Position numbers and translations under genes: made by a program
In this document: in pieces, positions 17,159-51,420 of the stretch
How positions within the stretch are numbered: the stretch's first letter is position 1
How the letters are laid out: each line of letters opens with the position of its first letter
NCBI GenBank assembly: GCA_016189905.1
Contig: JACPRP010000118.1
Coordinates: 11,478-75,477, forward strand
From: Chloroflexota bacterium
Lineage (GTDB): Bacteria; Chloroflexota; UBA6077; FW602-bin22; JACPRP01
Direction of reading: 5' to 3'
Length of the DNA stretch: 64,000 bases
Notes under the pieces: generated by a model
Told to the model about the DNA's origin: nothing
The model's database searches: none
The model's input: only the letters and a program-made list of their open reading frames with translations

Positions 17159-17175
17159 TGCAAGAAGGGTGCCAG
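17159..17175 (-). promoter_or_regulatory. Sigma54 -24/-12 promoter for polX-lig
   Basis: Minus strand CTGGCACCCTTCTTGCA (GG-N10-GC, near consensus). Confidence 0.75.
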
Positions 17176-17181
17176 TTCCCG

Positions 17182-17198
17182 CTGGTACATTTCTTGCG
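17182..17198 (+). promoter_or_regulatory. Sigma54 -24/-12 promoter for gap
   Basis: CTGGTACATTTCTTGCG (GG-N10-GC); predicted start site about 25 nt before the ATG. Confidence 0.7.
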
Positions 17199-17233
17199 CC
17201 TTGCTGCTGAATCAAATAATTTGGAGGTGATAG

Positions 17234-18253
17234 ATGAGTGTGAAAGTAGGAATCAACGGACTGGGAAGGATCGGCTCTCTGGTCTTGCGTTCGATTCTGG
17301 GGGTTCGCGATCTTGAGGTCGTCGCCGTCAACGATTTGACCAAGCCGGATACCCTCGCCTATCTGTTTCAGTTCAACTCTGTTCACGGCACCTATCGAGG
17401 GCACGTCGATTCGACCCAGAGCTCGTTGATAATCAACGGCAAGCAGATACGCGTCTTCGCCGAGCGCGACCCTGCGAAGATCCCCTGGCGCGATTCCGGG
17501 GTAGAGATCGTCGTCGAGTCCACTGGACGTTTCGAGAATCAGCAGGACGCGTCGAAACACCTGGCCGGCGGGGTGCGGAAGGTGATCATCACAGCGCCGG
17601 CCAAAGGAGTCGAGCGCACCCTGGTGCTGGGCGTGAACGAGGACACTTACGATCCGGGCAAGCACGACGTGGTTGCGATGGGCTCTTGTACCACCTATGC
17701 GCTGGCGCCCGTGGCGAAGGTGCTGAACGAGCGCTTTGGCATAGTGTATGGTTTCATCAACACGGCGCATGCGTACACCAATACGCAGGCTCTCCTGGAC
17801 AAGCCAGTCGACGGCAAGCGCCGGAGCCGTGCGGCCGCCGTGAATATCGTGCCAACTACGACGGGGGCAGCGAAGGCCATCGGACTGGTCATTCCGGAGC
17901 TCGAAGGCAGAATGGACGGCTGCGCCATTCGCGTTCCTGTGCCGGATGGCTCCATCGTCGATCTCACCTGCGTGCTGAACAGAGATGTGACCGTCGAGGA
18001 GGTCAATCAGGCTTTCCGCGAAGCCGCGCAAAGCGAGCGGCTTCGCAAGTACCTAACCGCCTCTGACAAAGAGCTTGTGTCGAGCGATATCATCGGGACC
18101 AGCCATTCGTCGATAGTGGATACTACCTTGACGATGGCCAAGGGGAACCTGGTGAAGGTGTTTGCCTGGTATGACAACGAATGGTCGTTTTCGATGCGGG
18201 TGGCCGATCTAACCGCTTACATCGCTAAACGCCTGCCTATACCAGCGAAGTAG
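17234..18253 (+). CDS. gap: Type I glyceraldehyde-3-phosphate dehydrogenase (divergent paralog)
   Basis: GINGLGRIG, VESTG, SCTT, HAYT..Q, PTTTGAAKA, RVP, WYDNE. Confidence 0.93.
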   Translation: MSVKVGINGLGRIGSLVLRSILGVRDLEVVAVNDLTKPDTLAYLFQFNSVHGTYRGHVDSTQSSLIINGKQIRVFAERDPAKIPWRDSGVEIVVESTGRFENQQDASKHLAGGVRKVIITAPAKGVERTLVLGVNEDTYDPGKHDVVAMGSCTTYALAPVAKVLNERFGIVYGFINTAHAYTNTQALLDKPVDGKRRSRAAAVNIVPTTTGAAKAIGLVIPELEGRMDGCAIRVPVPDGSIVDLTCVLNRDVTVEEVNQAFREAAQSERLRKYLTASDKELVSSDIIGTSHSSIVDTTLTMAKGNLVKVFAWYDNEWSFSMRVADLTAYIAKRLPIPAK

Positions 18254-18329
18254 CCGTCACTAGCACGAGCGCGTCGATCGTAGCGCGACACCTGCCCATA
18301 AGTGTTCTGAGAGCAAAGCCCCCAGTCGG

Positions 18330-18620
18330 TAGAGGGCCCACGCCTCAGGAGCACCAGGGAGGCATGGGGGCAGGGAATGTAGCCGCTCCGCCCGGCGGAG
18401 CGCGGGACTGTTAGAGTTCCGAGATGTGGGTAACGCCCGGTCGCTAGAACGGTTTGCGATGACCTTTGTCAGGCAAGGTAGGGGCCGGTTTGAAACCCGC
18501 CCTTGCGGACCATCTCGGTCGCTGGACGAACGATAGCGCAAAACGCCGTAGAGGCAAAGCACTCGCGCCTTCACCGTACGTAAATCCCTCTGAATACGGC
18601 GCGAATGCCTTGCCCTTCCA
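18330..18620. repeat. Cluster of REP-like palindromes between convergent genes
   Basis: GAATGTAGCCGC (also at ~13028), GTAGGGGCCGGTTTGAAACCCGCCC, and a ~70-bp GTAGAGGCAAAGCAC..GAATGCCTTGCCC element also found at 48846. Confidence 0.65.
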
Positions 18621-18630
18621 AGGAGGCCCA

Positions 18631-19803
18631 TCAAGACTTCACCACGAGCTTCTTTATCCCCTGCTCCAGTCCCTGGATGCTGAGCGTGTACATTGGGAAA
18701 ATACGGCGGATCAATTCGACCGTGGGGTGAGCCCAGTTGCCTTCGGCTTCTGGATTCAGCCAGATGCAGTGGGTGAAATGGTCGGCGATCCTCTTGAGCC
18801 AGATGGCGCCGGGCGTATCGTTGGTCTCCCAGTAGTCGATGGCGCCGTTAATCATAGTGAGCTCGGTGGGCGACATCGTCGCGTCTCCTACCAGGATGGT
18901 CTTGTAATCGGCGTCGAACGTCCTCAGAACGTGCTCTGTGCTGACCATTTCGCACCGCTCGATATCAGTGTAGAGGTTGCCGTAAATGCTGTTGTGAAAG
19001 TAGAAGTACTTGAAATCCTTGAAATGTGTTGCCGCGTTCGCCGCCGTGAACAAGATGCTGCACAGGTGCGCGTATGGGTCCATGGATCCACCGGCATCCA
19101 TCAATAAGAGGAGCTTGACGTTGTTCCGACGCTCGGCCGCCCAGATGAACTCCAGCTCCCCCGCGTTCTTGCAGGTCGCGTCGATCGTGGCCGGCAGATC
19201 TAGCTCGTCCTCTGGGCCGACCCGGCTAAGCTGGCGCAGTTGCTTCAGCGCCAGTCCTATTTGCCGCGTGTCGAGGACCAGGTCTGAGCGGTAGTTCTTG
19301 AAGTGCCGTTCAGCGGCGACCTGTACGGCCGAGCGCCCCCACGATGTTCCTCCGATCCGGATGCCGGCCGGATTCTGCCCGGAATGGCCAAATGGAGATG
19401 TCCCTCCCGTGCCGACCCACTTGCTCCCGCCGTCGTGCTTCTCCTTCTGCTCCCGCAGCCGCTCCTCCAGGGTCTTCAACAGATCCTCGAAGTTCATTTT
19501 CTCCAGTTGGGCAAGCTCTTCCGGTGAAAGACGGAGACTATGAATAGGGTCTCGCAGCCAGTTCAGAATCTGCTCGGTTATTTCCTCGGACGTCCCGATC
19601 CCGCTAAAGCATTCCTTGAACGCCACATCGTACTGATCGAAATGCGTCTCGCTCTTCACTAGGATCGCCCGCGCAAGGTAATAGAACGTCGTCAGATCGG
19701 AAAAAGTGAGACCTTTGGAAAGCGCTTCCATCAGCGTCATCCATTCGGTCAAGGATACCGGCACTTTGTGCCGCTTCAACGTAAAGAAGAAACTTGTGAA
19801 CAT
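18631..19803 (-). CDS. VWA domain protein (CoxE-like), MoxR partner
   Basis: MIDAS DAGGSM, YFHNSIY, VGDATM, WLNP; H.GGSKWVGTGGTSPFG motif. Confidence 0.88.
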   Translation of the reverse strand: MFTSFFFTLKRHKVPVSLTEWMTLMEALSKGLTFSDLTTFYYLARAILVKSETHFDQYDVAFKECFSGIGTSEEITEQILNWLRDPIHSLRLSPEELAQLEKMNFEDLLKTLEERLREQKEKHDGGSKWVGTGGTSPFGHSGQNPAGIRIGGTSWGRSAVQVAAERHFKNYRSDLVLDTRQIGLALKQLRQLSRVGPEDELDLPATIDATCKNAGELEFIWAAERRNNVKLLLLMDAGGSMDPYAHLCSILFTAANAATHFKDFKYFYFHNSIYGNLYTDIERCEMVSTEHVLRTFDADYKTILVGDATMSPTELTMINGAIDYWETNDTPGAIWLKRIADHFTHCIWLNPEAEGNWAHPTVELIRRIFPMYTLSIQGLEQGIKKLVVKS

Positions 19804-19821
19804 CTGCCCGTCCGATTTCGA

Positions 19822-20673
19822 CTAATAATAACGGCGATAGATGTTTGGCGTCGACTTGTTGCGTTTCCCCTGCAACACATCCAGGTCCTGTTCTTTCTTG
19901 ATCAGCGCGCCGAGGAACGGCACCTCTTTCTCGATCGCGTTGTGGTCGATCCCCCCAACGATCAAAGCCTGAAGCCAGTCGAGAAGCTCGCTTGTCGAGG
20001 GCTTCTTGCGGAAGTCGTCGATCTTGCGGAGCGCGTAGAACTTGGTGAGGGCTGCTTGTAACAGCTCGCTGCCGATGTTTGGAAAATGGACCTTGACGAT
20101 CCTTTCCATCATCTCCTGGTCGGGAAACTCGATATAATGGAAAACGCACCGCCGCAGGAAGGCGTCAGGCAGTTCCTTTTCAGAGTTGCTCGTGATAATC
20201 ACGATGGGGCGATGCTTGGCGACGACTTTGTCGCCGGTTTCGATGACCGTGAAGGCCATCTCGTCAAGCTCGTTGAGCAGGTCATTGGGAAACTCCAGAT
20301 CGGCTTTGTCGATCTCGTCGATCAGAAGCACGACCTGCTCCGCCGAGGCGAAAGCGCGGCCGAGTGGCCCCAGCTTGATGTACTGGCGGATATTCGACAC
20401 ATCTCTATCGCCGAACCGGCTATCGTTCAGCCGCTGGACGGTGTCGTATACGTACAGCCCGTCCTGCGCCTTGCTCGTGGATTTGACGTTCCAGATTATG
20501 AGCTCTTTGGTCAGACCCAGCGCTATGTTGTGGGCCAGAAGCGTCTTGCCTGTGCCAGGCTCGCCCTTGATGAGGAGTGGACGACCAAGCGCGATGGCCG
20601 CGTTGACCGTGCTGCGTAGAGAATCCGAGACAATATACTTATGTGTTCCTTGAAACTTATCGAAATCATTCAC
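19822..20673 (-). CDS. MoxR-family AAA+ ATPase (CoxD-like)
   Basis: GEPGTGKT, LLIDEIDKAD, ITSNSEKELPDAFLRRC, KKPSTSELLDW. Confidence 0.93.
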   Translation of the reverse strand: MNDFDKFQGTHKYIVSDSLRSTVNAAIALGRPLLIKGEPGTGKTLLAHNIALGLTKELIIWNVKSTSKAQDGLYVYDTVQRLNDSRFGDRDVSNIRQYIKLGPLGRAFASAEQVVLLIDEIDKADLEFPNDLLNELDEMAFTVIETGDKVVAKHRPIVIITSNSEKELPDAFLRRCVFHYIEFPDQEMMERIVKVHFPNIGSELLQAALTKFYALRKIDDFRKKPSTSELLDWLQALIVGGIDHNAIEKEVPFLGALIKKEQDLDVLQGKRNKSTPNIYRRYY

Positions 20674-20676
20674 GTT

Positions 20677-21177
20677 CTATATCTGATCTCCCAGAAGCCT
20701 GTATTTGTTGCGAAGTCTAGCCACAGGCGTCTTGCCCTCGTCTACGTGCAGAGCCAGCACCTCGCCGACGAAAAGCGTACGATCGCCCATTTCGAGGGCG
20801 TTAATGAGCTTGCACTCCATATTGATCGCGCATCCGTCGATCAGCGGGGATTCTACTTTGGTTCCCTGTCTGATCGGGATATCGTTCTCGACGAACTTAT
20901 CGCCGTTCCGACCCGACGTTTTCCCTACCTTGGCTGCCAGCTCTGTCTGGTCAGTGGCGGTCACGTTCAGTACGAACTCTCCTGCCTGCTTGATTAGATC
21001 GTGGCTGAACCTGGAAGACGCGACGGCGACGGCGACGATGGACGGCTTCGCCGAGATGCTCATGAATCTTGTGGCGCTCATCACGTTCCGTTGCCCATTC
21101 GTCGCAACGCTGACCATTACCACGGATGTTGGAAAATAGTCCAGTACTTTGTTGACTTCGATTTCGGTGGTAGCCAT
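20677..21177 (-). CDS. Flavin reductase-like family protein (DIM6/NTAB)
   Basis: GEFVLNV, GKTSGR..DKF, PLI..C..NMEC, GDRTLFVGEV; RBS AGGAG before MATTE. Confidence 0.88.
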   Translation of the reverse strand: MATTEIEVNKVLDYFPTSVVMVSVATNGQRNVMSATRFMSISAKPSIVAVAVASSRFSHDLIKQAGEFVLNVTATDQTELAAKVGKTSGRNGDKFVENDIPIRQGTKVESPLIDGCAINMECKLINALEMGDRTLFVGEVLALHVDEGKTPVARLRNKYRLLGDQI

Positions 21178-21353
21178 TTCCTTTTCTCCTCGCCTATTTT
21201 TTTGGAATGTGTTCCGCCTTGCAAGGCAACGTTTCACCGCTCGTTGGCTGCGGGGTTGTTCTGCGCGCTCTGGCCCGCTATCGTCACCTGCTATTCTAGG
21301 CCTGGCGGTTCCCGCTGTCAATATTTCTTGAGACCGGCTGGGTGCTTTCTCGA

Positions 21354-22610
21354 TCAGTATGGTTGTTCGGAGCTGATGAGGATGTCTCCTGACGCGCTCG
21401 TCAGCACAAGGAGCATCGTGCCCTGGTTGATCACGCCGCGCCAGCGGCCGTCGCTCTTGTTCGCGTCCTCGAACTCGAACGGCGGGTCGATGGTTATCTT
21501 GCCCTTCGTCGAGGCGTCCAGACGCAGAGCGCTTTCTTTGACGATGAACACCGAGATGTTGCCTGAAGATGTCTTGATGGTGTGCTGGCCCTCTGTTGGC
21601 AGGGCGCCGTAGAAGACCACGTTGCCTGTTCCGCCGGCGATGCTCACGCCAACGGCCGCAACCTCGGTGAGATTCACGGCCCCTTTCTGCGTCTTGATGT
21701 TGAAGCTTCCTTGCACCTGATCCAGCGCCACTGTTCCGCTTGAGGTTGTCGCCTCCAGCGTGTCCGCGGCGACGCGGAACAGGTTTATCAAGCCCTGTTG
21801 TGTCTCCAGGATAGCCTGCTTTGCGCTGCTTTCATTGATTCTTATCTGCCCATCGGGGGCTAGCACCGTTAGCGTTTGGGCGCGGAAGCGGGTCAGCGTG
21901 AGGTCGCCGTTTTGAATGCGGAACGTCGCGTCCATCTCAGCGCCGGAATCCTTCACCACCGTGTTGGCGCCGGTGACCACGGACATCGACGCGCCGGTAA
22001 CCCTGTCCAGTTGGACTGCCGCCTTGCCCGACTGGATTGTTGTTTTGCCGATGGCGTCGACGATCTGTACGCTGCCGGCTTCGCTGCGAATGGTGATCGC
22101 TCCGCGGATGTCCCTAAATGCGAGTGTGAGATTCTGGCCGTTGATATCGATGTCGCCTCTAATCCCTCCGATGGTTATGTTGCCACTACCTTTAGCGACC
22201 TTGACCGACGTATCGGGCGGGGCAGTGATCTTGTAATCCGCCTGTCGCCCCGACTTTGCACCGCCGGGAAGCTCAAACGAGATTGCCCGGTCTTTCATCT
22301 GAGGCTCGGCGCTGAACGATTCCAGGTCGCGCTGGGCGGATTCCTTGTCGACGCCAAAGGCTCGTTTCGTGACGACCACACTGACCTGTTTCGTCGGAGC
22401 CGTGAAGATGGTGATGTTGCCGTTCAGTTCGGCGAACTCCAGAATCGCGGAATCGCCCACATCAAGCGTGTATTGTTTTGCCTGGCTTGCGGGCACATCC
22501 CCGATCGGCGCGATACTCTCCTGCTGCGGGCTGGGCGAAGCGAGCAATTGCCACAGCGTAAGCCCCGCGATCACCGCCAGACCGATTAGCAGAGAACGTC
22601 TCCTTACCAC
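21354..22610 (-). CDS. DUF4097 beta-strand-repeat (adhesin-like) membrane-anchored protein; start uncertain (22610-22625)
   Basis: N-terminal TM segment; repeated T.SG.I beta-strand units. Confidence 0.78.
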   Translation of the reverse strand: MVRRRSLLIGLAVIAGLTLWQLLASPSPQQESIAPIGDVPASQAKQYTLDVGDSAILEFAELNGNITIFTAPTKQVSVVVTKRAFGVDKESAQRDLESFSAEPQMKDRAISFELPGGAKSGRQADYKITAPPDTSVKVAKGSGNITIGGIRGDIDINGQNLTLAFRDIRGAITIRSEAGSVQIVDAIGKTTIQSGKAAVQLDRVTGASMSVVTGANTVVKDSGAEMDATFRIQNGDLTLTRFRAQTLTVLAPDGQIRINESSAKQAILETQQGLINLFRVAADTLEATTSSGTVALDQVQGSFNIKTQKGAVNLTEVAAVGVSIAGGTGNVVFYGALPTEGQHTIKTSSGNISVFIVKESALRLDASTKGKITIDPPFEFEDANKSDGRWRGVINQGTMLLVLTSASGDILISSEQPY

Positions 22611-22634
22611 GAATCCCTCCATCACAATTTATGC

Positions 22635-22651
22635 AGCATAAAGGATGCCAA
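22635..22651 (-). promoter_or_regulatory. Sigma54-like promoter for the DUF4097 gene
   Basis: Minus strand TTGGCATCCTTTATGCT (GG-N10-GC). Confidence 0.55.
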
Positions 22652-22762
22652 AAGCCCCCGCCTCCCTCCTCCAGCCTCGCGTCCTTCCACAGAAGGAGAA
22701 GCGTGGACGATCTATCTAGCACCCTTTCCCTCACAGGATTTCGCACGGCTTAAATGCCAGTC

Positions 22763-22805
22763 GGGTGAGACCGACGCGGTTTTCGAAACCGCGTCGGTCT
22801 CACCC
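22763..22805. repeat. Perfect 20-bp inverted repeat (AGACCGACGCGG family)
   Basis: GGGTGAGACCGACGCGGTTT-tcg-AAACCGCGTCGGTCTCACCC; relatives at 29667, 42433 and 49016. Confidence 0.85.
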
Positions 22806-22883
22806 ACACCGTTTGCGAATAGATCCACGGGAGAGACTATAAGACCGCCCGAGCGAAACCGCTTTCCTGATCCATGACGGGAA

Positions 22884-22900
22884 GGGGCACGAGATTTGCT
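22884..22900 (+). promoter_or_regulatory. Sigma54-like promoter for NDH-2
   Basis: GGGGCACGAGATTTGCT (GG-N10-GC); predicted start site about 33 nt before the ATG. Confidence 0.6.
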
Positions 22901-22943
22901 ATATAGATTCCGAGTCGAGCACATTCTGGAGGAAGGATCAACG

Positions 22944-24341
22944 ATGGCAGGACGTTTGATTAGAGGATTGCTGTTGGCGCTCGGCATTGCCTGGCTATAC
23001 TTCTTGACAAGCCGAACACAGCGGTTCAACAGGGCGAAGGTGGCCCGTTGGTATCGTACGCGACCCGAGGTGCCAAAGCGTCGCATCGTCGTTCTTGGGG
23101 CAGGATTCGGAGGCCTCTATACGACGATGCATCTGGCTGACGCGCTGCGCGCCGATCCACGGGTGGAGATAACGCTAGTGGATCGGAACAATTTCCACCT
23201 CTTCACGCCGCTCCTGACTACAGTGGCCGGCGGACTGGTGGATTCACAGCACGTTGCCTACCCCGTGCGGCGATTGGAACGGACTAACACGTTTCTTTTC
23301 CGCGAGAGCAACGTGATCGGAATCGACCTGGACAAGAAAATGGTGCGACTGGAAGATGGCCATCTGACTTACGATTATCTCGTGTTCGCTCTTGGTAGCG
23401 TCACCAACTTCTTCGGCATGAAGAACGTGGAGCGGCTGGCGTTTCCGTTCAAGAACTTGCGGGACGCGGTGCGAGTGCGGAATGAGGTTATCTCCAGATT
23501 CGAAGAAGCGATATGGGAAAGCGATCCTGCTCGCAGGCGACAGCTTCTGACCTTCGTTTTTTGCGGCGGCGGTGCGACAGGTGTGGAGTTGGCAGCTGCC
23601 GTCCACGATTTTATCTTTGAGAGCTTGATCGAGGAGCATCCCGGAGTTGAAAGGAATGAGGTGCGCCTGGTCCTGGTGGAAGCTCACCGACGCCTTCTTC
23701 CTACTCACGATCCCTACCTTTCGATTGTGACTCACAACAAGCTGTTATCGAAAGGCGTTGACGTTCGTCTGGGGACCAGGATAGCGAGCCCCATAGAGGA
23801 CGATTCTGGAAGGCTGACGGCGGTTGAAACCCATACGGGAGAGATCATTCCGACCCGCACCCTCATCTGGACGGCGGGCATCGAAGTTAGTGACGTAATT
23901 TCGACCCTGCCGGTGCAAAAAGGTAGAGGGGGCGCGATCATGGTCGATGAATATCTGGGCGTGCCGGGATATCAAGGCGTGTACGCCCTGGGGGATAATG
24001 CCGCGGCTCGCGATCCCAGAACAGGGGTCGCACTATCGCCAGACGCAAAAGTGGCCGTGCAGTTGGCGCGATGGGTAGCTAAGAACATCGTGAACGAAAT
24101 GAACGGCAGGCCCAGGGTCCAGTTCAAGTACGAGCATATGGGCGACCTGGTTCTGTTGGGGACGAACGCGGCGGTCGCGGACATCAAAGGGGTTAAGCTG
24201 TCGGGGCTCCCGGCGTTTCTGCTCTGGCGGTCCTTCTACTTCTGGCGCCTTCTTGGCTTCGAGAGCAAGGCCAGGATTGCCTGGGATTATCTCTACGGCC
24301 TCCTGGCCGAGCGCGACACCGCCAAAACGGAAGTCGCCTGA
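22944..24341 (+). CDS. ndh: Type II NADH:quinone oxidoreductase-like flavoprotein with an N-terminal TM anchor
   Basis: VVLGAGFGG, FTPLL, YDYLVFALGS, GGGATGVELA, WTAG, YALGD. Confidence 0.85.
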   Translation: MAGRLIRGLLLALGIAWLYFLTSRTQRFNRAKVARWYRTRPEVPKRRIVVLGAGFGGLYTTMHLADALRADPRVEITLVDRNNFHLFTPLLTTVAGGLVDSQHVAYPVRRLERTNTFLFRESNVIGIDLDKKMVRLEDGHLTYDYLVFALGSVTNFFGMKNVERLAFPFKNLRDAVRVRNEVISRFEEAIWESDPARRRQLLTFVFCGGGATGVELAAAVHDFIFESLIEEHPGVERNEVRLVLVEAHRRLLPTHDPYLSIVTHNKLLSKGVDVRLGTRIASPIEDDSGRLTAVETHTGEIIPTRTLIWTAGIEVSDVISTLPVQKGRGGAIMVDEYLGVPGYQGVYALGDNAAARDPRTGVALSPDAKVAVQLARWVAKNIVNEMNGRPRVQFKYEHMGDLVLLGTNAAVADIKGVKLSGLPAFLLWRSFYFWRLLGFESKARIAWDYLYGLLAERDTAKTEVA

Positions 24342-24472
24342 GTACTTCGCAACAGGCTCACCCGCCTTCCGCGGAAGGACAGACAACCCCAATAGATTCT
24401 TTGCGCCCTTTGCGGTGAAATCATCTGCCGCAATTATTACAACGTACTTTGCTCGCTCGACTGGCGCGTGGC

Positions 24473-25219: not shown

Positions 25220-25226
25220 AGCGTCA

Positions 25227-25254
25227 ATTATACAAGACACACAGCCGAATTCAA
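25227..25254 (-). promoter_or_regulatory. Sigma70 promoter predicting a leaderless transcript
   Basis: TTGAAT-N16-TATAAT-N7-ATG with no SD sequence. Confidence 0.65.
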
Positions 25255-25273
25255 AACGATAATATTCAAACGT

Positions 25274-26422: not shown

Positions 26423-26469
26423 CGTGCGTCCATTCCCCCCAAGTTGTCTCCATAAAGTACTTAACATAA

Positions 26470-26547
26470 ATAGTAAGAAGTGGGAAAGTTTTTGTCAAAT
26501 CAAGCTATTGATTTGGCCATTCTCTCGTGTTATGCTTGCAGATGCAA
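26470..26547. promoter_or_regulatory. Divergent sigma70 promoters plus a palindromic operator
   Basis: Minus strand TTGACA-N17-TACTAT (26498-26470); plus strand TTGATT-N17-TATGCT (26508-26536) overlapping TTGCAGATGCAA (26536-26547). Confidence 0.55.
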
Positions 26548-26566
26548 ATTATCAAGGAGGTCGGCA

Positions 26567-29664: not shown

Positions 29665-29666
29665 GT

Positions 29667-35967: not shown

Positions 35968-37131
35968 ATGACGAACTGTTTCATCCCGTGGCGGAGCAAG
36001 GCATTAGTGTCTTTTATCTTGGTCCTTTCGATCGTGTCGGTTATCGGGTGCGCCCAGGCGACGCCTACCGCCACGCCCACTCAGGCGGCAAAGGCCACGC
36101 CGGCCAAAGAGGCGAAGCCGGAGGCGGTGGCGACGAAGCCCGCAGCTCAGGCGCCTACCCCACAGGCCAAGGAGGCCAAGCCTCAGAAAGAGGCCGCGAA
36201 AGACGCGAAGAAGGCCGCCAAGATCAGGGTGGCTTACGCTGCTGTCGCGGGAACCCAGACGCCAATCTGGCTGGCCAAGGAAAAAGGTCTCTACGAGAAG
36301 TACGGCTTGGACGCTGAAGTCGTCTACATCGCGTCGGGGGCTCCAACGGCCCAGGCTATGATCGCGGGAGAGATTCAGGTGGGTAGCACGGGTGGCGAGA
36401 GCGTTGTCACCTCGAACCTGGCGGGCAGCGATATCGTGATGATCGCGGCGACGAGCAACTACCTGGCCTTCTCCCTTTTCGGGCAACCTAACATCCAACG
36501 CGTCGAGGAGCTGAAAGGTAAGACGTTGGGTATATCGCGGTTTGGGTCCGGCCCCGACACTGCCGCCCGTATGACGCTGAAGCGGCTTGGACTGGAGCCA
36601 GGCAAGGACGTGGCCATCATAGAGTCTGGTGGCTCGCCTGAGACGTTCGGGGCTATGAAGGCCGGGGGAATTCATGCAACTGTGACCGGCCCCCCCAATT
36701 CGGTCGCCCTGAAGAAACTCGGAATGCGCGAGTTGGTGAACATCTCCGAACTCGAGATTCCCTACGTGCAGACCGGCATCGCCGTGAGCAAACAGTTTAT
36801 GGCGAACAATCGAGAGACGGTGATGAGCTTCCTTAAGGCGTATGTCGAAGCCATCTCTGTGGCTAAGAAGGACAAAGACTATACGATGAAGATCATCGGC
36901 CAGTACTCCAAGACAGATGACAAGGAAGTCTTAGACGATACGTACGAGTTCTATATGGCCAAGCTGGCGCCGAAAGTCCCGTACGTCGGTGTTGCCTCGG
37001 TGCAAACCCTCCTTGATGAGGCAGCAAAAAGTGTTCCGAAAGCAAAGGATGCCAAACCTGAGTCTTTCTTCGACAATCAGCTAATGAAGGAGCTGGACGA
37101 CAGCGGCTTCATCAAGAAGCTGTACGAGTAA
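35968..37131 (+). CDS. NitT/TauT (SsuA/NMT1) ABC substrate-binding lipoprotein
   Basis: Lipobox VIGC, Pro/Ala/Lys linker, WLAKEKGLYEKYGLD, LKGKTLGISRFGS, ELDDSGFI. Confidence 0.9.
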   Translation: MTNCFIPWRSKALVSFILVLSIVSVIGCAQATPTATPTQAAKATPAKEAKPEAVATKPAAQAPTPQAKEAKPQKEAAKDAKKAAKIRVAYAAVAGTQTPIWLAKEKGLYEKYGLDAEVVYIASGAPTAQAMIAGEIQVGSTGGESVVTSNLAGSDIVMIAATSNYLAFSLFGQPNIQRVEELKGKTLGISRFGSGPDTAARMTLKRLGLEPGKDVAIIESGGSPETFGAMKAGGIHATVTGPPNSVALKKLGMRELVNISELEIPYVQTGIAVSKQFMANNRETVMSFLKAYVEAISVAKKDKDYTMKIIGQYSKTDDKEVLDDTYEFYMAKLAPKVPYVGVASVQTLLDEAAKSVPKAKDAKPESFFDNQLMKELDDSGFIKKLYE

Positions 37132-41891: not shown

Positions 41892-41897
41892 CAAGGA

Positions 41898-42422: not shown

Positions 42423-42432
42423 CTGGCATTGC

Positions 42433-42467
42433 TAGACCGACGCGGTTTCGAAAACCACGTCGATCTA
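42433..42467. repeat. Palindromic repeat (AGACCGACGCGG family)
   Basis: TAGACCGACGCGGTTT-cga-AAACCACGTCGATCTA. Confidence 0.75.
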
Positions 42468-42473
42468 CTCATC

Positions 42474-44624: not shown

Positions 44625-44752
44625 TTCTGCCTTCCCTTCCCACGAATTCGCACCCAGGCAGCGCATCGATAGCGAAGCTGCTGTTCGCAAAGATACACTC
44701 TGGGTACCTGGCTGTATATCTGACTTCGGTACGGTTTTGATTACCTCACGCC

Positions 44753-47683
44753 TCAAGACGCCTGGAATTCGGTAAACTGGCCGATGATGCCTTCTCCGAG
44801 CGCCCATTGGTAGACCGAAATGCCCCCTTTGCGCCCGAAGAGCTTCAGCTTGCGGCGGATACTGCTCACGTGATACCGTAGCGTGTTATCGGTGATGCAC
44901 ATGCTCCGCGCAAGATTCGCCCGGTGTGATTCGCTCCAGCTCCCAGACTTTTCTTCCGTGTTGCGCAGGGGGAGATAATATCGGGCAAAGATGTCGATCT
45001 CCCTCCAGGTAAGTCCGTAAGCGTGGCGGAGCCGCAGGATGCCCGCCACAGTGAGCCGCTGGTCGGCAAGCGCACTGACGATCCGGGCACGCAAATCGTC
45101 GTCCTTGCAGGTTGATAACAGCGGATCGGCGGCGCCAGGATGCTGCGCGTTGGACCCCGCGAGGTCCAGTATGAGCCGCGTCGCCAACTCTCGCAACCCC
45201 GCGTCGCTTTCGGACAGGAGCGGCAGGAAAAAACGAAGCTGAGCGAGGGTGAGGCGCCTCACACAAAGCTTCAGCACGTAGTTACGCGCCAGGTTCTCTC
45301 TCAATGCTTCTGCCGCAAGCAAGGCCACAGCGTCAGGCTGCCAGAGAAAGAAATTGAAGCACTGCTCACGCTCGGCGAAGTGCAGGGCTTCGAGCAGGTG
45401 CCGCCGTCCACGGACGAACTCGCTTTGATCGTAGCATAGCCTGGCCAGGTGCAAACGCACTCCCGCCAGCCGGTACTCTAACCGCAGCCGGTCGAACAGT
45501 CCCACCGCGTTCGAGAGATACTGCTCGGCCTCGTCCACATTCCCTGATTCCAGCGCCACCACGCCGAGGACAGCTCGGGCGCACGCCAGATCGATCGGTG
45601 CCCCTCGCTGTTCGGCATCCTCCATCTCTCTGAAGCAAAGCTGCCGCGCTTCGCTGAGTCGCCCCTGACGCAGCCACACGTATCCCAGACCACCGGTATC
45701 GGCTGAATCGTCGTCGGCAAAAGCAGAAACAGCCCTCGCCGCCGCGAAGTCGTTGCTGGCGAACGTGATGCTCGACTTCGCCCAGGTCAGCTTGTTGAGC
45801 AGCTTGATTAGCCCGCGGCGCGCGGCTATCTCCATCGCGCGGTCCAACAGCGGCAGCGCCTCTTCGAAGTCGCCCTTCGTCGCGTGAATAAGCGCCATCA
45901 GGTCGAGACAGTGTACTGTGGTGCGCTCGCCCAGGCTCTCGGTCTGGCACAGTTGGTAGGCCTGTTCAGCCATCTGTAGAGCGGAGCGAATCCTTCCCTG
46001 CTGCAGTTGGACCCATGCCAGGCGACGCGTCGCGCGGGCGCGCAGGACCAGTGAGGCGCGATGATTGTCCGCCCGCTCTAGCAGCGACATTGCCTTATCG
46101 AAAGAATCGGCTGCCTCGACAAAACGTCCGCAGGTAGCGTAGCCCAGGATCAGGTGCGTGTGAATCTCGGCGCGTAGATTGTGGCCCCCCTTGGGCACGA
46201 CGCTGAGCGCTTCCTCCAGCAGGCGCAGCGCCTCGGCAGGCTTGCGCGATTCGAAGGCAATCGTCGTTCTTTCCAGCATAGTGCGCGCAATGCCGTCTGA
46301 CTCCTTCTGCTGTCGGAACAACCGCTCCGCGCGCTCGAGGATCACCGACGCCGGCTGCAGCTTATCCTCGAGACGCAGGACCCCGCTCCTGTGGACGAGT
46401 AACCAGGGATCTTTTTCCAGGACGGTCTCGGGAATCCGGCTCAGCCAGTCACGAATCGTGGCTACCTCTCCCGCGCCGATCAGCCGGGTGGCCTGAAGTC
46501 GGATGATCCTTGAGGCCGATCGCCAGTGCTGCCCCTGGCAATAATGATGGAAGGCGGCCTCCCAGTTCTCTTCGTTTTCGAATATCTGCCCGCAGTCCTT
46601 GTGTAACGCCCGAATGGCGTTCTTGCCTTCCCGACGCCGCAGCCTCGCCTGCAGGAAATCCTGAAAAAGCGGGTGATAGCGATAAACAGGCTCATCGCCC
46701 TGCAGACCCTGATAGAAAAGCTGGCTGTGACCACGGCTTAGCCTATCGAGCATCGTTCCAGCGTCGGCACTTTCGAGAAGATTGTCGGCCGCGCCCGGTG
46801 TTAGCTGAAAGAGATGCGCGGTCATCTCCATGAAACGCTGAGTGGCTGGCGGCTGTGTCTCCAGGAAGTGAAAAGCCAGGTAATCTGAGATTGGTGGCTC
46901 GACACCGCGCATCTCGAGTAGCTCGCCGTCGAAATCGTCGCCGCGTCCGACCAATCGCTGGCAAAGCATCTGCAATGCCGCCGCCCATCCCTGAGCTCGT
47001 TCCGCGATCTGAGCCAGGCTGTCACCGGATAGACCGTGAAGGCCGCGCTCCCGCAGTAGATCTCTCGTTTCTTCGTCCGTGAACGCCATGTCCGCTTCAG
47101 TGAGGTCGAGCACCTGGCCGTACTGGCGCAGGCGGGCGAGCTGGGCCGTAGCGATGTCGCGTCGCGACGACACGAACAGATGGCACTCGGCCGGAAGATA
47201 TGCCAAAAGATAGTCCAGAATCTCCGCGATCTCTGGCGAATGGCTGACCGCCTCGAAGCCATCCAGCACCAGTGCGGACTGACAATATCCCGGACCCGCC
47301 AGCGCGGCGATCAACGCGGCGAGCGAGGCCTGGTGAGTCCCAGCGGATTGATCTATCAGCTCCACGCCGTGCTCGATGCGGGTCAGGTGAGGGAGACTCT
47401 GTCTGAAGCCCTCGGCAAGGTAGAACAGAAACCGCGCAGGGTCCACATCGTCCTGATCCAACCGATACCAGATCGTTGGCCAGCCGATTGAAGAGACGTA
47501 TGAGGACAGAAGACCGGTCTTGCCGTAGCCCGCCGCCGCTGTGAGAATCGTGGCCCGTCGCCGCGTGCCGATCTCAAGCCTCTCATACAGCCTGACCCGA
47601 GGGATCAAACTGCCTGGTTGAGGCTCTGGCGATAGTTTGGCTAGAAGCGTGGCGTGCGCGATGGGGTCAGAAACGGTTATCAT
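44753..47683 (-). CDS. MalT-like STAND ATPase-TPR-LuxR transcriptional regulator
   Basis: KLSP..IPR.RL, AAAGYGKT, W.RLD..D.DP.RF, GWAAAL, YRYHPLF..FL, TPR repeats, C-terminal LT.RE...T.R.HV.SI.RKL. Confidence 0.88.
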   Translation of the reverse strand: MITVSDPIAHATLLAKLSPEPQPGSLIPRVRLYERLEIGTRRRATILTAAAGYGKTGLLSSYVSSIGWPTIWYRLDQDDVDPARFLFYLAEGFRQSLPHLTRIEHGVELIDQSAGTHQASLAALIAALAGPGYCQSALVLDGFEAVSHSPEIAEILDYLLAYLPAECHLFVSSRRDIATAQLARLRQYGQVLDLTEADMAFTDEETRDLLRERGLHGLSGDSLAQIAERAQGWAAALQMLCQRLVGRGDDFDGELLEMRGVEPPISDYLAFHFLETQPPATQRFMEMTAHLFQLTPGAADNLLESADAGTMLDRLSRGHSQLFYQGLQGDEPVYRYHPLFQDFLQARLRRREGKNAIRALHKDCGQIFENEENWEAAFHHYCQGQHWRSASRIIRLQATRLIGAGEVATIRDWLSRIPETVLEKDPWLLVHRSGVLRLEDKLQPASVILERAERLFRQQKESDGIARTMLERTTIAFESRKPAEALRLLEEALSVVPKGGHNLRAEIHTHLILGYATCGRFVEAADSFDKAMSLLERADNHRASLVLRARATRRLAWVQLQQGRIRSALQMAEQAYQLCQTESLGERTTVHCLDLMALIHATKGDFEEALPLLDRAMEIAARRGLIKLLNKLTWAKSSITFASNDFAAARAVSAFADDDSADTGGLGYVWLRQGRLSEARQLCFREMEDAEQRGAPIDLACARAVLGVVALESGNVDEAEQYLSNAVGLFDRLRLEYRLAGVRLHLARLCYDQSEFVRGRRHLLEALHFAEREQCFNFFLWQPDAVALLAAEALRENLARNYVLKLCVRRLTLAQLRFFLPLLSESDAGLRELATRLILDLAGSNAQHPGAADPLLSTCKDDDLRARIVSALADQRLTVAGILRLRHAYGLTWREIDIFARYYLPLRNTEEKSGSWSESHRANLARSMCITDNTLRYHVSSIRRKLKLFGRKGGISVYQWALGEGIIGQFTEFQAS

Positions 47684-47833
47684 CTTTCCTTAGCTTGAAG
47701 GCCCGTCCCGACTGGGCCGCAATCCTATCCGAATCTCATCACAGTGGCTTAATGAAGAGGACTACCTTACGGACGTTCATCTGGGCAAATACTCTGGAGA
47801 AGCGATTCCACCTATCCACTCCCAGCAAACGCG

Positions 47834-47861
47834 ATTATATCACAGTGGACTGGCCAGTCAA
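47834..47861 (-). promoter_or_regulatory. Sigma70 promoter for the MalT-like gene
   Basis: TTGACT-N16-TATAAT with extended -10 TG. Confidence 0.65.
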
Positions 47862-47965
47862 GGTTTAGCCGCGCCATAATCCACAGCCATAATCCATAAT
47901 ATTGACGCCGCTGCCACCGTGTGGTATTGTGGCCACGACGGACGGGAAACCGACCTCTTCTACAC

Positions 47966-48110
47966 TGTTTACTGTGCAAAATGCATCTTGCAGTTGCGGC
48001 CCTCTGTGGCTGCATGGGATGGGGCGATGGCAGCGCCTGTTTTCTGGTGCAAGCGCATCTCGTAGTGGTGGCCCTGTGTGGCCGCATGGAGTGGGGTTGG
48101 AGGCAACGCC
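47966..48110. repeat. Diverged ~72-bp tandem duplication
   Basis: Units 47966-48037 and 48038-48110 share TGTTT..GTGCAA..GCATCT.G.AGT.G.GGCCCT.TGTGGC.GCATGG..TGGGG..GGCA.CGCC. Confidence 0.75.
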
Positions 48111-48152
48111 CATTTCCGCACCAAAACTATACTAGACAATGGGGTTTGAAAG

Positions 48153-48785
48153 TTGGGTAAGAAGCCGATTATCAAGGTCCTCCACGTGGGGATGTTTGAG
48201 ACGAACTGTATTCTTGTGGTGTGTCCAGAAACACGCGAAGCGATCGTGGTCGATCCCGGCTTCGACGGGGACGCCATCATGCGGGCGGTCGACGAGCTGC
48301 AAGCAAAGGTGAAGTACATTGTCATCACGCACGCGCATCCCGATCACATCCTCGCCTGCGACCAGGTAAAGGCGGCGACCGGGGCGCCGGTCCTCGTCCA
48401 TCCGCTCGACGCGCCCGCGATGACCAGGATGCCGAGCGAGCTGACCTTCTGGCTGAAAGAGAAGCCGATCATGGCGCCGGCGGACGAGTTCATCAACGAG
48501 GGGGACGAGCTGACCATCGGGCAGGTGGTTCTGAAGGTGCTGCACACGCCAGGACATTCCAGGGGCCATATCTCGCTGGTCACGGATGGGATCGCGATTG
48601 TGGGTGACGTGCTCTTTTTCCAGGGAATCGGCAGAACGGATTTCCCCGGCGGCAGCTTCCCTGAGCTGATCGACTCCATCAAGACCAAGCTCTTCCCGCT
48701 CGGCGACGACACGGTCGTCTATCCCGGCCACGGCCCCGCGACGACCATCGGTGACGAGCGCACAACCAACCCATTCTTAGTGTAG
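48153..48785 (+). CDS. MBL-fold metallo-hydrolase (glyoxalase II / YcbL-like)
   Basis: THAHPDH, HTPGHS, GDVLF..GIGRTDFPGG, VYPGHG. Confidence 0.93.
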   Translation: MGKKPIIKVLHVGMFETNCILVVCPETREAIVVDPGFDGDAIMRAVDELQAKVKYIVITHAHPDHILACDQVKAATGAPVLVHPLDAPAMTRMPSELTFWLKEKPIMAPADEFINEGDELTIGQVVLKVLHTPGHSRGHISLVTDGIAIVGDVLFFQGIGRTDFPGGSFPELIDSIKTKLFPLGDDTVVYPGHGPATTIGDERTTNPFLV

Positions 48786-48845
48786 TTTCCAGTGCGCTGA
48801 TTCGCAGGCTGGATAGGGCAAAACCGCTATAAGACCGCAAGGCTG

Positions 48846-48916
48846 GTAGGGGCAAAGCATTCGCGCCTTCTCCTTACGTATTGCCCCGATGGTATGGCGC
48901 GAATGCTTTGCCCCAC
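48846..48916. repeat. GTAG REP-like element (~70 bp)
   Basis: GTAGGGGCAAAGCATTCGCG..CGCGAATGCTTTGCCCC; paralog at 18548-18616. Confidence 0.75.
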
Positions 48917-49015
48917 GGTCTTGCCCAACCACCTGCCTTCACCTTTCCGCAGAAGGGCCGACGATTCTTACTTTTTCGTTGCCAGATTTGCGCGTGGGTC
49001 ACATAACGATCGGGG

Positions 49016-49142
49016 TCAGACCGACGCGGTTTCCCGATTCAGACCGACGCAGTTCTCCAATTCAGACCGACGCAGTTCTCCAATTCAGACCGACGCGGTT
49101 TCCCAATTCAGACCGACGCGGTTTTCAAAACCGCGTCGGTCT
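49016..49142. repeat. Four 23-bp tandem repeats ending in a full palindrome
   Basis: TCAGACCGACGC(A/G)GTT(C/T)(T/C)CC(A/G)AT four times, then TCAGACCGACGCGGTTTTCAAAACCGCGTCGGTCT. Confidence 0.9.
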
Positions 49143-49270
49143 CGGCCGTCGGAATCAAAAGCCGCCCACTACTGAACGACAATCTCCGGCTCGAAATCCT
49201 GCCGTTCGGCCATCTCGACCGTCACGGGCAACCTTGCCCAGGCTTTTACTCCGACATACCAGATCTAACC

Positions 49271-50962
49271 TTAGCACTCTGTCCCTGTGTAAACAGTGTA
49301 ATTCTTGTACACCCGAGGGAAGTACAGCCTGGTAGATCCACCGCTTGGCGAGATGCCGAAAAGCTGGAAGCCTGTGCTCGTAGCCGTCGGCTCCACCTCT
49401 GCGCTGCCATACTGCGCGCTCGCGGTATACTGCTCGACCAGAATGTACGGGCTGCCGCCGATGATGTAGTCGTTTGATGTTAATCCGTTATTATCGGTGG
49501 CGCCTGGCAGCCATTTTGTGTAAGATCTCGCGAGATTGAGGTTCGTCGCATATCCAGCTTTGTCGACCCAATAAGCCCGCACGGCTCTCGGCGACGCCGT
49601 TATGGAATAGCTACGTCCGCTTGGAGAATTGTTCCACGCGACGGTTACTTTCCTGGACGAAGGCTCGCAAAATGTAACTATGTCCACACCGCGGTCGGTC
49701 GTCTTCTGAACGGAGGAGTAATTCGAGAAATACTGCGACGCGACCTGATACGCGGTGAAGGATGGACGCTGCGTGTTATCGTTGCGCAGGAGGCCGAAAG
49801 CCTCGGCGTTGCCATCGTCGTATTGCTGGAAAGCGAAAATCTGCTGCACATTGGCAGCCAGTCCGTAAGCGATCGCCTGGATGACGTATGAGGCAGCTTC
49901 ATCCATCGTCGCGCTGCCAAAGTACGCCTTGTTCTCGCCGCCGAATGGCGGCCTGGTCGGATCGTTCCATATCGGCACGCCGGTCTCGTTGACCCAGACC
50001 GGCTTGGCTCCCAACCCGTAGCTCTGCAGGGTGCTCCGTGCCTGGTTGACCATATCGTACATCTGCGAGGATCGGTTGTACCAGTGCTGCGCCATCGCGT
50101 CAAAATAATGGTTGTTCGCCGCCGCTGCATTATCAGCCTTGATAGCGGCTAGGATCTGGCTCAAGAAGTTCTGGTTCGGCCACGTCCAGTGGGCTAATCC
50201 CCCCATCAATACCGTCGCTTCCGGGTCTGCGAACTTGGCCGCAATATAGCCAACCTTTAGCAACCTGAAGTACTGCTCCACGGACCCGCTCCAGAAGGAC
50301 GGATTATCCGGCTCGTTCCACATCTCCCAGACCCTAATTCCAGGCTTATAACGATATACCGTATTATAGACGAAGCGTGCCCAGTAGTTTCTTGGGTTAA
50401 TGGTCTTATAAGGCCCAGGCGTATCTGAGCCATCGGTGAATATCTTTTCATTAAGGCCTGCTGGTGGTGCGGCAGCGGGGCTAAACGAATTAGGCAGGGA
50501 ACCCGGCGGAACCGGCGCGAAATATCGTGGGCCTTCGCCAACGCGGGGTGGCGGAGCATCTTCTAGCAACCCGGGCATTGGGCTCGCTGCCCACGACGGC
50601 GTGCCGACCAGAATGGCATTCACTTGGAGAGCATTGGCAATGTCTGATCTGACGACCGCGTCTTGAGCAGTGTAATCGGGGCTCCCATTTGAACCTTCGA
50701 TCATATCCCAGTACATCGGCCAGCGGTCCCAGCCAGCGCCGAGACTCGTCGCCCGGCTGAAGCGATACGCCGGGAGCGACGGAATCTCTGCGCTGCCGAT
50801 GAACACTATCCCCAGGCGGCTATTGGCTGCGAGTGGCTGCGCTGCTGGTTCGGGCGCGACCTCGGCAACTGCCGGCCTCTGAAGTTGCGACGACATCGTG
50901 ACGATCAGCGCCAGAAAGATCAAGCTCGTCAACGGGCGCACAGATTTAGTCCACCTACTCAC
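49271..50962 (-). CDS. Secreted clan GH-A glycoside hydrolase (GH5/GH39-like)
   Basis: Signal peptide; WEMWNEPD acid/base; VWVNETG nucleophile; FGLLRND; C-terminal LYFPRV motif. Confidence 0.82.
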   Translation of the reverse strand: MSRWTKSVRPLTSLIFLALIVTMSSQLQRPAVAEVAPEPAAQPLAANSRLGIVFIGSAEIPSLPAYRFSRATSLGAGWDRWPMYWDMIEGSNGSPDYTAQDAVVRSDIANALQVNAILVGTPSWAASPMPGLLEDAPPPRVGEGPRYFAPVPPGSLPNSFSPAAAPPAGLNEKIFTDGSDTPGPYKTINPRNYWARFVYNTVYRYKPGIRVWEMWNEPDNPSFWSGSVEQYFRLLKVGYIAAKFADPEATVLMGGLAHWTWPNQNFLSQILAAIKADNAAAANNHYFDAMAQHWYNRSSQMYDMVNQARSTLQSYGLGAKPVWVNETGVPIWNDPTRPPFGGENKAYFGSATMDEAASYVIQAIAYGLAANVQQIFAFQQYDDGNAEAFGLLRNDNTQRPSFTAYQVASQYFSNYSSVQKTTDRGVDIVTFCEPSSRKVTVAWNNSPSGRSYSITASPRAVRAYWVDKAGYATNLNLARSYTKWLPGATDNNGLTSNDYIIGGSPYILVEQYTASAQYGSAEVEPTATSTGFQLFGISPSGGSTRLYFPRVYKNYTVYTGTEC

Positions 50963-51403
50963 ACCACCGCCTCTACCAACATCCACGACACGACGGGCCC
51001 ATTGTCGCGCCCTGTGAATCCCTGAATTCCACTTTCCATTAAGTATCTTGACAAGGTCACCTTACCAAATCAAGCGGCGCCTCACCGAACGCACCCGTAG
51101 CGCGGGCGGCTTGTCCCCCGCGGGGCGAGGTGAGCGGGGCGTCCGGCAGGTAAATGTGGCATTGTCAACGTATCTAACAATAGTTTTACCACAACGACGC
51201 CCTGAGTTCTCTTTGCGCCCTCTTTCCTTTCGCAGATGGACGCTTTGTCCTTCCGCAGAAGGACGGTGAAACTTTATGCCCTACATATTGCGAGGTACTT
51301 CATACTGCGTCGCCTATCTTACATTAGCGACGAGCCGAGCGTCAAGGCCAATAAGTACCAATAGAGGGCCGGCCAACAACTAATACCTCTCCATCTTGCT
51401 TTT

Positions 51404-51420
51404 TGGGCACCAATCTTGCA
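51404..51420 (+). promoter_or_regulatory. Sigma54-like promoter for the GH2-like gene
   Basis: TGGGCACCAATCTTGCA (GG-N10-GC); predicted start site about 37 nt before the ATG. Confidence 0.6.

Follow-up and report, generated by a model that had tools for sequence, protein, structure and literature searches.

Do promoter-like sequences scattered along one contig of a Chloroflexota bacterium belong to a larger regulon, and if so, what controls it and to what end? The stretch in question, hereafter the window, comprises 64,000 nucleotides (G000:C106:11478-75477) and holds five sequences that resemble the -24/-12 promoters recognized by RNA polymerase containing sigma-54 (RpoN). An earlier note on this DNA had proposed that these sites form a dispersed regulon with a theme of stress or dormancy rather than nitrogen control. 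We estimate a probability of roughly 0.6 that the five sites are genuine sigma-54 promoters within a genome-wide regulon of about 200-250 such promoters, served by one activator and constituting a unitary programme of the stress type. The host genome is a metagenome-assembled genome (MAG) of 3.53 Mb in 125 contigs, with 58.8% G+C, a completeness of 86.4% and a contamination of about 4%.

Sigma-54-type promoters in the window and across the genome

The sequence places all five sites no more than 1-2 nt from where they had first been reported. Scored with a weight matrix that was iterated and trained on this genome, and ranked among non-coding matches, they are as follows (window positions).

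17160-17174 (20-mer 17157..17176), minus strand: sigma-54-type promoter TGGCAC-N5-TTGC, core TGGCACCCTTCTTGC, facing polX-ligase; 20.6 bits, rank 38
17183-17197 (20-mer 17181..17200), plus strand: sigma-54-type promoter TGGTAC-N5-TTGC, core TGGTACATTTCTTGC, facing gap; 18.1 bits, rank 106
22636-22650 (20-mer 22633..22652), minus strand: sigma-54-type promoter TGGCAT-N5-TATGC, core TGGCATCCTTTATGC, facing the DUF4097 operon; 14.3 bits, rank 207
22886-22899 (20-mer 22883..22902), plus strand: sigma-54-type promoter GGCAC-N5-TTGC with G instead of T before GG, core GGCACGAGATTTGC, facing the gene for a type II NADH dehydrogenase (NDH-2); 13.6 bits, rank 224
51406-51419 (20-mer 51403..51422), plus strand: sigma-54-type promoter GGCAC-N5-TTGCA, core GGCACCAATCTTGC, facing a gene related to glycoside hydrolase family 2 (GH2-like); 17.5 bits, rank 127

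All five are intergenic and each is oriented toward a gene. The GG and GC elements are exactly 10 nt apart in every case, and the match extends beyond GG-N10-GC to the full consensus TGGCAC-N5-TTGC. Measured from the C of the -12 GC, the start codon lies 37 nt away for gap (ATG 17234), 26 nt for the DUF4097 gene (GTG 22610), 45 nt for NDH-2 (ATG 22944), 49 nt for the GH2-like gene (ATG 51468) and 132 nt for polX (GTG 17028). Transcription from sigma-54 promoters starts 11-12 nt after the GC, and on that spacing the predicted leaders would measure about 14-37 nt for four of the genes and about 120 nt for polX. Four of the sites form two divergent pairs, with 4 bp between the 20-mers at 17157-17176 (minus) and 17181-17200 (plus) and about 235 bp between the sites at 22636 (minus) and 22886 (plus). 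The earlier description of intergenic, correctly oriented sites, four of them in two divergent pairs and four with a predicted transcription start near the start codon, therefore holds, polX being the exception with respect to leader length.

A loose pattern was dropped as stand-alone evidence because its counts in the window are near chance. TGG-N10-GC, the stricter form of GG-N10-GC, occurs 234 times versus 186 +/- 13.5 in shuffled sequence, and GGCAC-N5-TTGC with one mismatch occurs 23 times versus 18.3 +/- 4.5, a value reached in 14 of 100 shuffles. The 12.7 kb of non-coding DNA in the window contains five weight-matrix matches of at least 13.5 bits versus 0.23 expected from the density in coding DNA. 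Across the genome, GGCAC-N5-TTGC has 146 exact matches versus 24-37 for the same half-sites separated by spacers of 2, 3, 4, 6, 7 or 8 nt. Since matches within the bodies of open reading frames (ORFs) are equally frequent for all spacers (22-29 each), the excess at N5 lies wholly outside coding DNA, where 82 exact-core matches are located upstream of and facing a gene and 36 are otherwise intergenic. Around the exact cores that lie outside ORF bodies (125 sites), the flanking letters give the canonical sigma-54 logo: T precedes GG in 66%, GGCAC is followed by G or A in 83%, the second position before TTGC is T in 57%, and TTGC is followed by A in 50%. This signal is back at background no more than 3 nt from the core, which shows that the sites are not copies of a repeat.

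The weight matrix yields 214 non-coding versus 38 coding sites at 14 bits or more, and 273 versus 108 at 12 bits or more, while coding DNA makes up 77% of bases and is thus 3.4-fold larger. These counts imply some 200-250 real sites. Gene positions and the number of transcription units were taken from a crude home-made ORF caller. On these calls, 200 sites are followed by a gene on their contig, and at 89 of them the -12 GC lies 20-80 nt before the start codon. The 214 sites divide into 90 with only the correct orientation, 68 in divergent regions, 19 with only the wrong orientation and 37 without a start in the adjoining 300 nt. Set against about 1750 transcription-unit starts, the sites would serve approximately 12-15%, or about an eighth, of all units by this crude count. 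Through the spacer control, the non-coding excess and the orientation bias, motif frequency in the genome thus stands far above background, and the proposed regulon is not refuted on this score.

A phyletic control used 21 genomes of the same order (one of which, G019, is unpublished and contributes one row of tallies). An rpoN gene was found in 12 of the 21, and a gene for a bacterial enhancer-binding protein (bEBP), the class of ATPase that activates sigma-54, in 11. The excess of N5 over N6 matches is 109 in the genome studied here, 70 in a member of the same family (G001), 78 in G002 and 12-42 in the other rpoN-positive genomes versus -17 to +14 in the nine where no rpoN was found. Across the order, the excess broadly follows the presence of rpoN, a pattern that is not a statistical test given that these genomes are kin. 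Among 301 sampled genomes of the phylum that are at least 85% complete (one row, G056, is unpublished), rpoN was found in 107.

RpoN, its activator and the genes behind the sites

The genome encodes a single complete RpoN of 472 aa (G000:C114:911-2329, outside the window) with activator-interacting, core-binding and DNA-binding domains. Its best named match carries a Proteobacteria label (55% identity) and the second is from a 'Chloroflexia' MAG (48%). A CxxC-N10-CxxC insert directly follows region I of this RpoN (L001:517-1935); the two closest named homologs (L006 and L007) have this insert too, four more distant RpoN sequences in the alignment do not, and it may be a zinc ribbon in region II.

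A single strong match to PF00158 is present in the genome and it also lies outside the window, on contig C6 (G000:C6:11009-12415). This bEBP of 468 aa consists of a receiver domain (REC) with an acidic pocket evident from alignment, an AAA+ domain with Walker A and B motifs, a lid and a Fis-type helix-turn-helix (HTH), corresponding to the Pfam families Response_reg, Sigma54_activat, AAA_lid_14 and HTH_8. Its best matches among solved structures are of the NtrC family (4l4u, 3dzd and 1ny5; E 1e-92 to 1e-98). The loop that contacts sigma-54 reads GSFTSA instead of GAFTGA, with F and T kept; six of the seven aligned orthologs likewise have GSFTSA and one has GSFTGA. The HTH is conserved across these orthologs, and those in relatives are 63-83% identical to the bEBP versus 53-64% for full-length gap matches and 37-49% for NDH-2 homologs. 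A tblastn search of the whole assembly with the bEBP AAA+ domain (E <= 0.01) found no second domain of this type. Within the window, the AAA protein at 19822-20673 gives a weak partial match to PF00158 (31.9 bits, profile positions 89-162) and looks MoxR/CoxD-like because it lies beside a VWA/CoxE gene. The absence of an enhancer-binding protein from the window, as originally described, is thus upheld, and the inventory of one complete rpoN and one NtrC-type bEBP likewise leaves the proposal unrefuted.

In relatives as well, the activator is typically single. Seven of the 11 bEBP-positive genomes show one match, including those at 95-99% completeness (G005, G013 and G016), and two full-length genes are present in G012. 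In G002 and G004 there are two bEBP fragments apiece, mostly at contig ends, that fit one gene split by assembly, and G007 has rpoN with no bEBP in its assembly. The rpoN and bEBP genes lie about 4 kb apart on one contig in G012, G016 and G019. In the genome studied here, the two top-scoring sites (23.1 and 23.5 bits) front a GAF histidine kinase and a lone REC protein, whose genes are located about 9 kb and about 4 kb, respectively, from the bEBP gene. Between the kinase and REC genes (G000:C6:2649-6479) are also a gene for a protein with two BON domains, one for a GT4 glycosyltransferase and one for a protein-L-isoaspartate O-methyltransferase, an enzyme that repairs aged proteins.

Enhancer sites for this activator, which would be expected about 80-150 bp upstream of the promoters, were sought in about 160-210 upstream regions with k-mers, palindromic dyads, general 4+4 dyads and Gibbs sampling versus control sets, and no shared enhancer was found. 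No upstream sequence common to more than about 6% of the promoters emerged, although degenerate sites could escape these methods, and the one motif to come out of Gibbs sampling was the divergent sigma-54 motif. The genome has 24 back-to-back divergent site pairs and no convergent pairs, and the gaps between the paired 20-mers cluster at 1-5 and 13-19 bp. In 16 of the 24, polX/gap included, only 1-36 bp separate the two sites, and this leaves no room for an enhancer between such paired promoters. In the family-mate G001, two BON genes flank a back-to-back pair (C36:14246/14284).

One additional element recurs at a fixed place. About ten strong promoters, all outside the window, carry CTGAACCAT(C/G)CCC starting 19-23 nt upstream of the GG (G000, at C12:12967, C13:2026, C37:11438, C66:8146, C70:15156, C75:24980, C83:12386, C95:42663, C116:25893 and C23:9366). 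This element may be a co-regulator site or may mark a promoter sub-class. The targets of these promoters include a quinol-dependent nitric oxide reductase (qNOR) and a GH5 cellulase, and several have a very long gap to the next called gene.

To assess what the regulon contains, we considered the 149 genes that come first behind a site and start -30 to 250 nt downstream of it, and took the 100 whose sites score highest. Ninety-eight of the encoded proteins were scanned against Pfam at E <= 1e-5, the other two being window genes that were scanned separately. Among the matches are the following.

Protection: four BON proteins, two PRC-barrel proteins, DUF892, a ferritin-like protein, rubrerythrin, hemerythrin, Fe/Mn superoxide dismutase (SOD), DUF2171, a thioredoxin-reductase-like enzyme and trehalose-6-phosphate synthase (GT20, OtsA)
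DNA and nucleoid: polX, Fpg, a bifunctional nuclease and HU
Proteolysis: a LonC-like protease, an S41 protease, two M50 proteases, rhomboid and M23/LysM
Ions: Nramp and a P-type ATPase
Energy and carbon: the gap paralog, a second gene resembling glyceraldehyde-3-phosphate dehydrogenase (GAPDH), a dehydrogenase E1 subunit, glucose/sorbosone dehydrogenase, GH57, PfkB, DeoC, lactate permease and qNOR
Envelope and glycans: six glycosyltransferases (GT1/GT4, GT2 and GT9), GtrA, PBP1, MurT, a Mur ligase and two GH5 proteins
Spore-associated domains: SpoVAE and Gmad2
Signalling: three histidine kinases, two lone REC proteins and a sigma-70 with regions 1.2-4
Other: one IS630-type transposase

Families that are hallmarks of general stress responses are thus found behind sites (BON, PRC-barrel, DUF892, ferritin, rubrerythrin, SOD and OtsA). 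When every gene located behind a site of at least 12 bits, directly or by an operon walk, is counted, the set takes in 8 of 10 genes for BON proteins, 5 of 7 for PRC-barrel proteins and the genome's one DUF892 gene versus a baseline of 361 of 2729 genes (13.2%). A ninth BON gene, on contig C6, has a 13.8-bit site inside its own over-long ORF call. BON genes also occur near rpoN or the bEBP gene in G001, G002, G005, G013 and G016, and 9 of 19 assessable BON loci have an upstream site on the same strand (4/4 in G001, 2/2 in G002, 2/4 in G016, 1/5 in G013 and 0/4 in G005). A further regulatory tier may be provided by the sigma-70 family, which has 16 region-2 matches in the genome. Two of these also have region 3, and one of the two, a group-2-like sigma-70 gene that is followed by a PRC-barrel gene, is fronted by an 18.9-bit sigma-54 site.

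A nitrogen (Ntr) regulon was considered and rejected. The single glnA gene has no site of at least 8 bits upstream in the weight-matrix scan, and amtB was not found in the 86%-complete assembly. The genome-wide inventory fits the theme of stress or dormancy rather than nitrogen that the earlier note had favored. Its picture of a dispersed regulon stands with respect to sigma-54 sites and to stress and repair genes; its scale of five sites does not, since there are about 200 or more promoters, with a large envelope and glycan component.

A proposed unitary programme and its alternatives

In the mechanism that we propose, RNA polymerase with the single RpoN would sit on these promoters as a closed complex. 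The sigma-54 holoenzyme is unable to open promoters without an ATPase of the bEBP type, and because of this requirement the single bEBP should gate the whole promoter set. Closed complexes would be opened by this NtrC-class protein (REC-AAA+-Fis-type HTH, GSFTSA loop), which is presumably switched on through phosphorylation by a sensor kinase. The output would be one unitary programme that includes stress protection (BON, PRC-barrel, DUF892, ferritin, rubrerythrin, SOD and trehalose synthase), DNA repair (polX-ligase, Fpg and nuclease), alternative energy enzymes (the gap paralog, NDH-2 and qNOR), proteases and remodelling of cell wall and glycans, with the second, group-2-like sigma-70 as a downstream cascade. 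The motif, its excess across the genome, the gene content and the single rpoN and bEBP genes are observed; that one bEBP drives all of the promoters, that it needs no specific enhancer to do so and that stress or growth arrest is the trigger, we infer. Enhancer-free activation would be the most economical reading, by analogy with Borrelia Rrp2, whose activation is reported as 'enhancer-independent' (PMC2940757, PMC3037356). The conserved HTH does not follow from this reading; its targets could be degenerate sites, a small number of autoregulatory sites or the element CTGAACCAT(C/G)CCC of the promoter subset.

A bolder version holds that sigma-54 and one phospho-activated bEBP constitute this lineage's general stress or dormancy master switch, in the place of sigma-S, sigma-B or EcfG, and fire at least 200 promoters enhancer-free. 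An activator of this kind would act from solution or by contact with promoter-bound holoenzyme, and such a switch would explain both the many back-to-back pairs and the unusually strong conservation of the activator. We regard this version as tentative and, on present evidence, rather doubtful.

Several observations weigh against a unitary stress regulon. A look-up of sequencing runs returned four DNA runs, all from a single groundwater study and one of them perhaps the source sample, and no RNA run. The label 'stress' is a reading of gene names and not a statistical classification, because 27 of the 98 scanned targets have no Pfam match and because ordinary metabolic genes and a transposase are also in the set. 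The BON counts are not independent, since four BON genes share one cluster, so that an independent count is closer to 5-6 of 7 loci. Gene calls are crude, and among the 214 sites 37 lack a gene start in the adjoining 300 nt of both strands and 19 are misdirected. No shared upstream activator site was found in the regions searched even though the HTH of the bEBP is conserved, an outcome that missed sites, or activation of a mere subset of the promoters, could account for. The window promoters are weakly conserved, with a site in place at only 2 of 10 homolog loci in relatives (gap copy 2 in G005 and NDH-2 in G001), and the orthology of these loci is uncertain because paralogs exist. Finally, further bEBPs could be missing from the assembly, because the MAG is only 86.4% complete.

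This last point is also the starting place for a different account, in which the promoters are real and the regulon is modular, with several bEBPs absent from the MAG each driving a subset and with no single programme. The two full-length bEBP genes of G012 and the CTGAACCAT(C/G)CCC element shared by about ten strong promoters, a hint of sub-regulation, point in the same direction. However, tblastn reveals no second bEBP-type AAA+ domain, relatives at 95-99% completeness have one bEBP, and apart from this element no subset-specific enhancers were found, which leaves a modular regulon unlikely. Nor do we favor, with somewhat lower odds, the possibility that RpoN binds most of the sites and that a minority are productive, the others being poised or silent closed complexes or roadblocks, as is reported for many sigma-54 sites of E. 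coli (intragenic binding there is the subject of PMC4591121). Our genome has 38 coding-region matches of at least 14 bits, two of them in the window (458-477 and 37021-37040), as well as 56 of 214 non-coding sites that are mis-oriented or far from a start. Yet the orientation bias, the peak at 20-80 nt and the enrichment at the level of families are what selection for promoter function predicts.

The remaining alternatives concern what the regulon is for and whether the motif belongs to sigma-54 at all. Sigma-54 in general has been proposed as a regulator of the cell exterior by Francke 2011 (PMC3162934), and the regulon could be chiefly an envelope and polysaccharide programme in which stress genes are a side component and not a general stress or dormancy response. 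Many first genes are of this type (GT1/GT4, GT2, GT9, GtrA, PBP1, MurT, Mur ligase, M23/LysM, S41, rhomboid and GH5). However, genes for protection and repair in the cytoplasm stand out no less, and it is BON and PRC-barrel that are specifically enriched, so that a chiefly exterior programme appears improbable; the two themes are, moreover, compatible with each other. That the motif is instead the site of another DNA-binding protein, or part of a mobile repeat, unrelated to sigma-54, is scarcely credible given that its flanks are at background within 3 nt of the core, its logo equals the sigma-54 consensus position by position, and its excess is greatest in the rpoN-holding genomes among the 21 relatives.

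A sigma-54 regulon serving one unitary stress programme thus remains our preferred reading, and it has partial counterparts in other bacteria. In Borrelia burgdorferi, essentially only rpoS is known to be under direct sigma-54 control, and the large regulon is reached indirectly. The Rrp2-RpoN-RpoS system resembles the present one in having one REC-AAA+-HTH bEBP, one sigma-54 and a sigma-54 promoter before a second sigma-70-family factor, but here more than 200 promoters themselves carry the -24/-12 motif. A single bEBP is also a feature of Chlamydia trachomatis, an obligate intracellular parasite with sigma-54 and CtcC (AtoC), in which a sigma-54 regulon of tens of genes accompanies the change to a non-growing form. 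CtcC is not known to have a DNA-binding domain, whereas the HTH is kept and conserved here, and the promoter set is several-fold larger; the chlamydial regulon is the subject of bioRxiv 10.1101/2023.04.27.538638. In content, there is a likeness to the regulons of sigma-S in E. coli, sigma-B in Bacillus and EcfG in Alphaproteobacteria, which include OsmY-type BON proteins, YciE/F-type DUF892 proteins, Dps/ferritin, trehalose synthase, SOD and PRC-barrel proteins, and all of these families are found behind sigma-54 sites here. Those regulators are of the sigma-70 family and are controlled by proteolysis or partner switching, whereas the switch here would be an ATP-driven bEBP acting on sigma-54. 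The activator has the same architecture as that of the classical NtrC/sigma-54 nitrogen regulon, but glnA lacks a site, amtB was not found in the assembly, and no shared upstream activator sites were found in the upstream regions searched.

Sigma-54 is usually described as controlling small modules, each with its own activator and enhancer. The parts of the present system are textbook sigma-54; its unusual features are a scale of at least 200 promoters, one activator that is highly conserved and encoded far away, the failure to detect an enhancer, the frequent back-to-back pairs, a sigma-S/sigma-B-like content together with a cascade from sigma-54 to sigma-70, and the host lineage. If the unitary reading is true, one activator serving about an eighth of transcription units without a detectable enhancer would be an unusual regulatory architecture, and it would make the entry of an uncultured groundwater lineage into a non-growing state, and its exit from that state, open to concrete tests. 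We found no description of a sigma-54 regulon for Chloroflexi in the literature searched; the main text of PMC12316311 contains no mention of Chloroflex*. Sigma-54 and its activators are recorded as present in 'some Chloroflexi' by Francke 2011 (PMC3162934).

Genes behind the window promoters and minor elements

Pfam matches bear out the target identities that had been assigned to the window from its letters.

15262..17028, minus strand: PolX-family DNA polymerase with HHH, pol-beta thumb and PHP domains, first gene behind its promoter
13459..15246, minus strand: ATP-dependent DNA ligase, 15 nt past polX in the ORF layout and probably in one operon with it
17234..18253, plus strand: GAPDH paralog (gap)
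21354-22610, minus strand: DUF4097 toastrack protein, first of four co-directional genes spanning 18631..22610
20677-21321, minus strand: flavin reductase, second gene of the DUF4097 operon
19822-20673, minus strand: MoxR/CoxD-like AAA protein, third gene of the operon
18631-19803, minus strand: CoxE-like VWA protein, fourth gene of the operon
22944..24341, plus strand: NDH-2 with Pyr_redox_2 and NDH2_C
51468..52688, plus strand: GH2-like TIM-barrel protein with a weak Glyco_hydro_2_C match

Three of these genes have additional copies in the genome. A second gap copy on contig C50 is 51% identical by tblastn and has no site in the site map, a second NDH-2 copy on C58 has only a weak 12.7-bit match without a -12 GC, and four more tblastn matches to the GH2-like gene, in three places elsewhere, all lack strong sites. 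Because these other copies are without strong sites, the gap, NDH-2 and GH2-like genes of the window look like condition-specific paralogs. The finding also predicts which of the paralogs are 'resting-state' versions.

A REP-like perfect hairpin with core GACGCGGTTTTCGAAACCGCGTC and flanks AGACC/GGTCT is located at window positions 22773-22795, 42439-42461 and 49115-49137. The first copy lies between the promoters at 22636 and 22886 and was considered as an enhancer, a candidate that was rejected as the palindrome has about 35 intergenic copies in the genome. Only about 7 of these lie near sigma-54 sites, and the hairpin is therefore probably a terminator or a REP-type element.

Other matches to the matrix in the window are of minor weight. 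Those at 458-477 (plus, 14.0 bits) and 37021-37040 (minus, 15.6 bits) lie inside ORFs and could be sigma-54 sites within genes or matches by chance. A sixth candidate of marginal score, GGCACGGTTGGTGC, at 60953-60972 (plus, 13.2 bits), falls within the first 90 nt of the ORF at 60887-61510 and was left uncounted. The SBP gene that follows the GH2-like gene (52957) has its own TTGAAT/TATAAT-type box. This TTGAAT ... TATAATGCTTGC box, of the sigma-70 -35/-10 type, is common to positions 1697-1727 and 52900-52936, the latter preceding the SBP gene, and both regions yield false low-score matches to the sigma-54 matrix.

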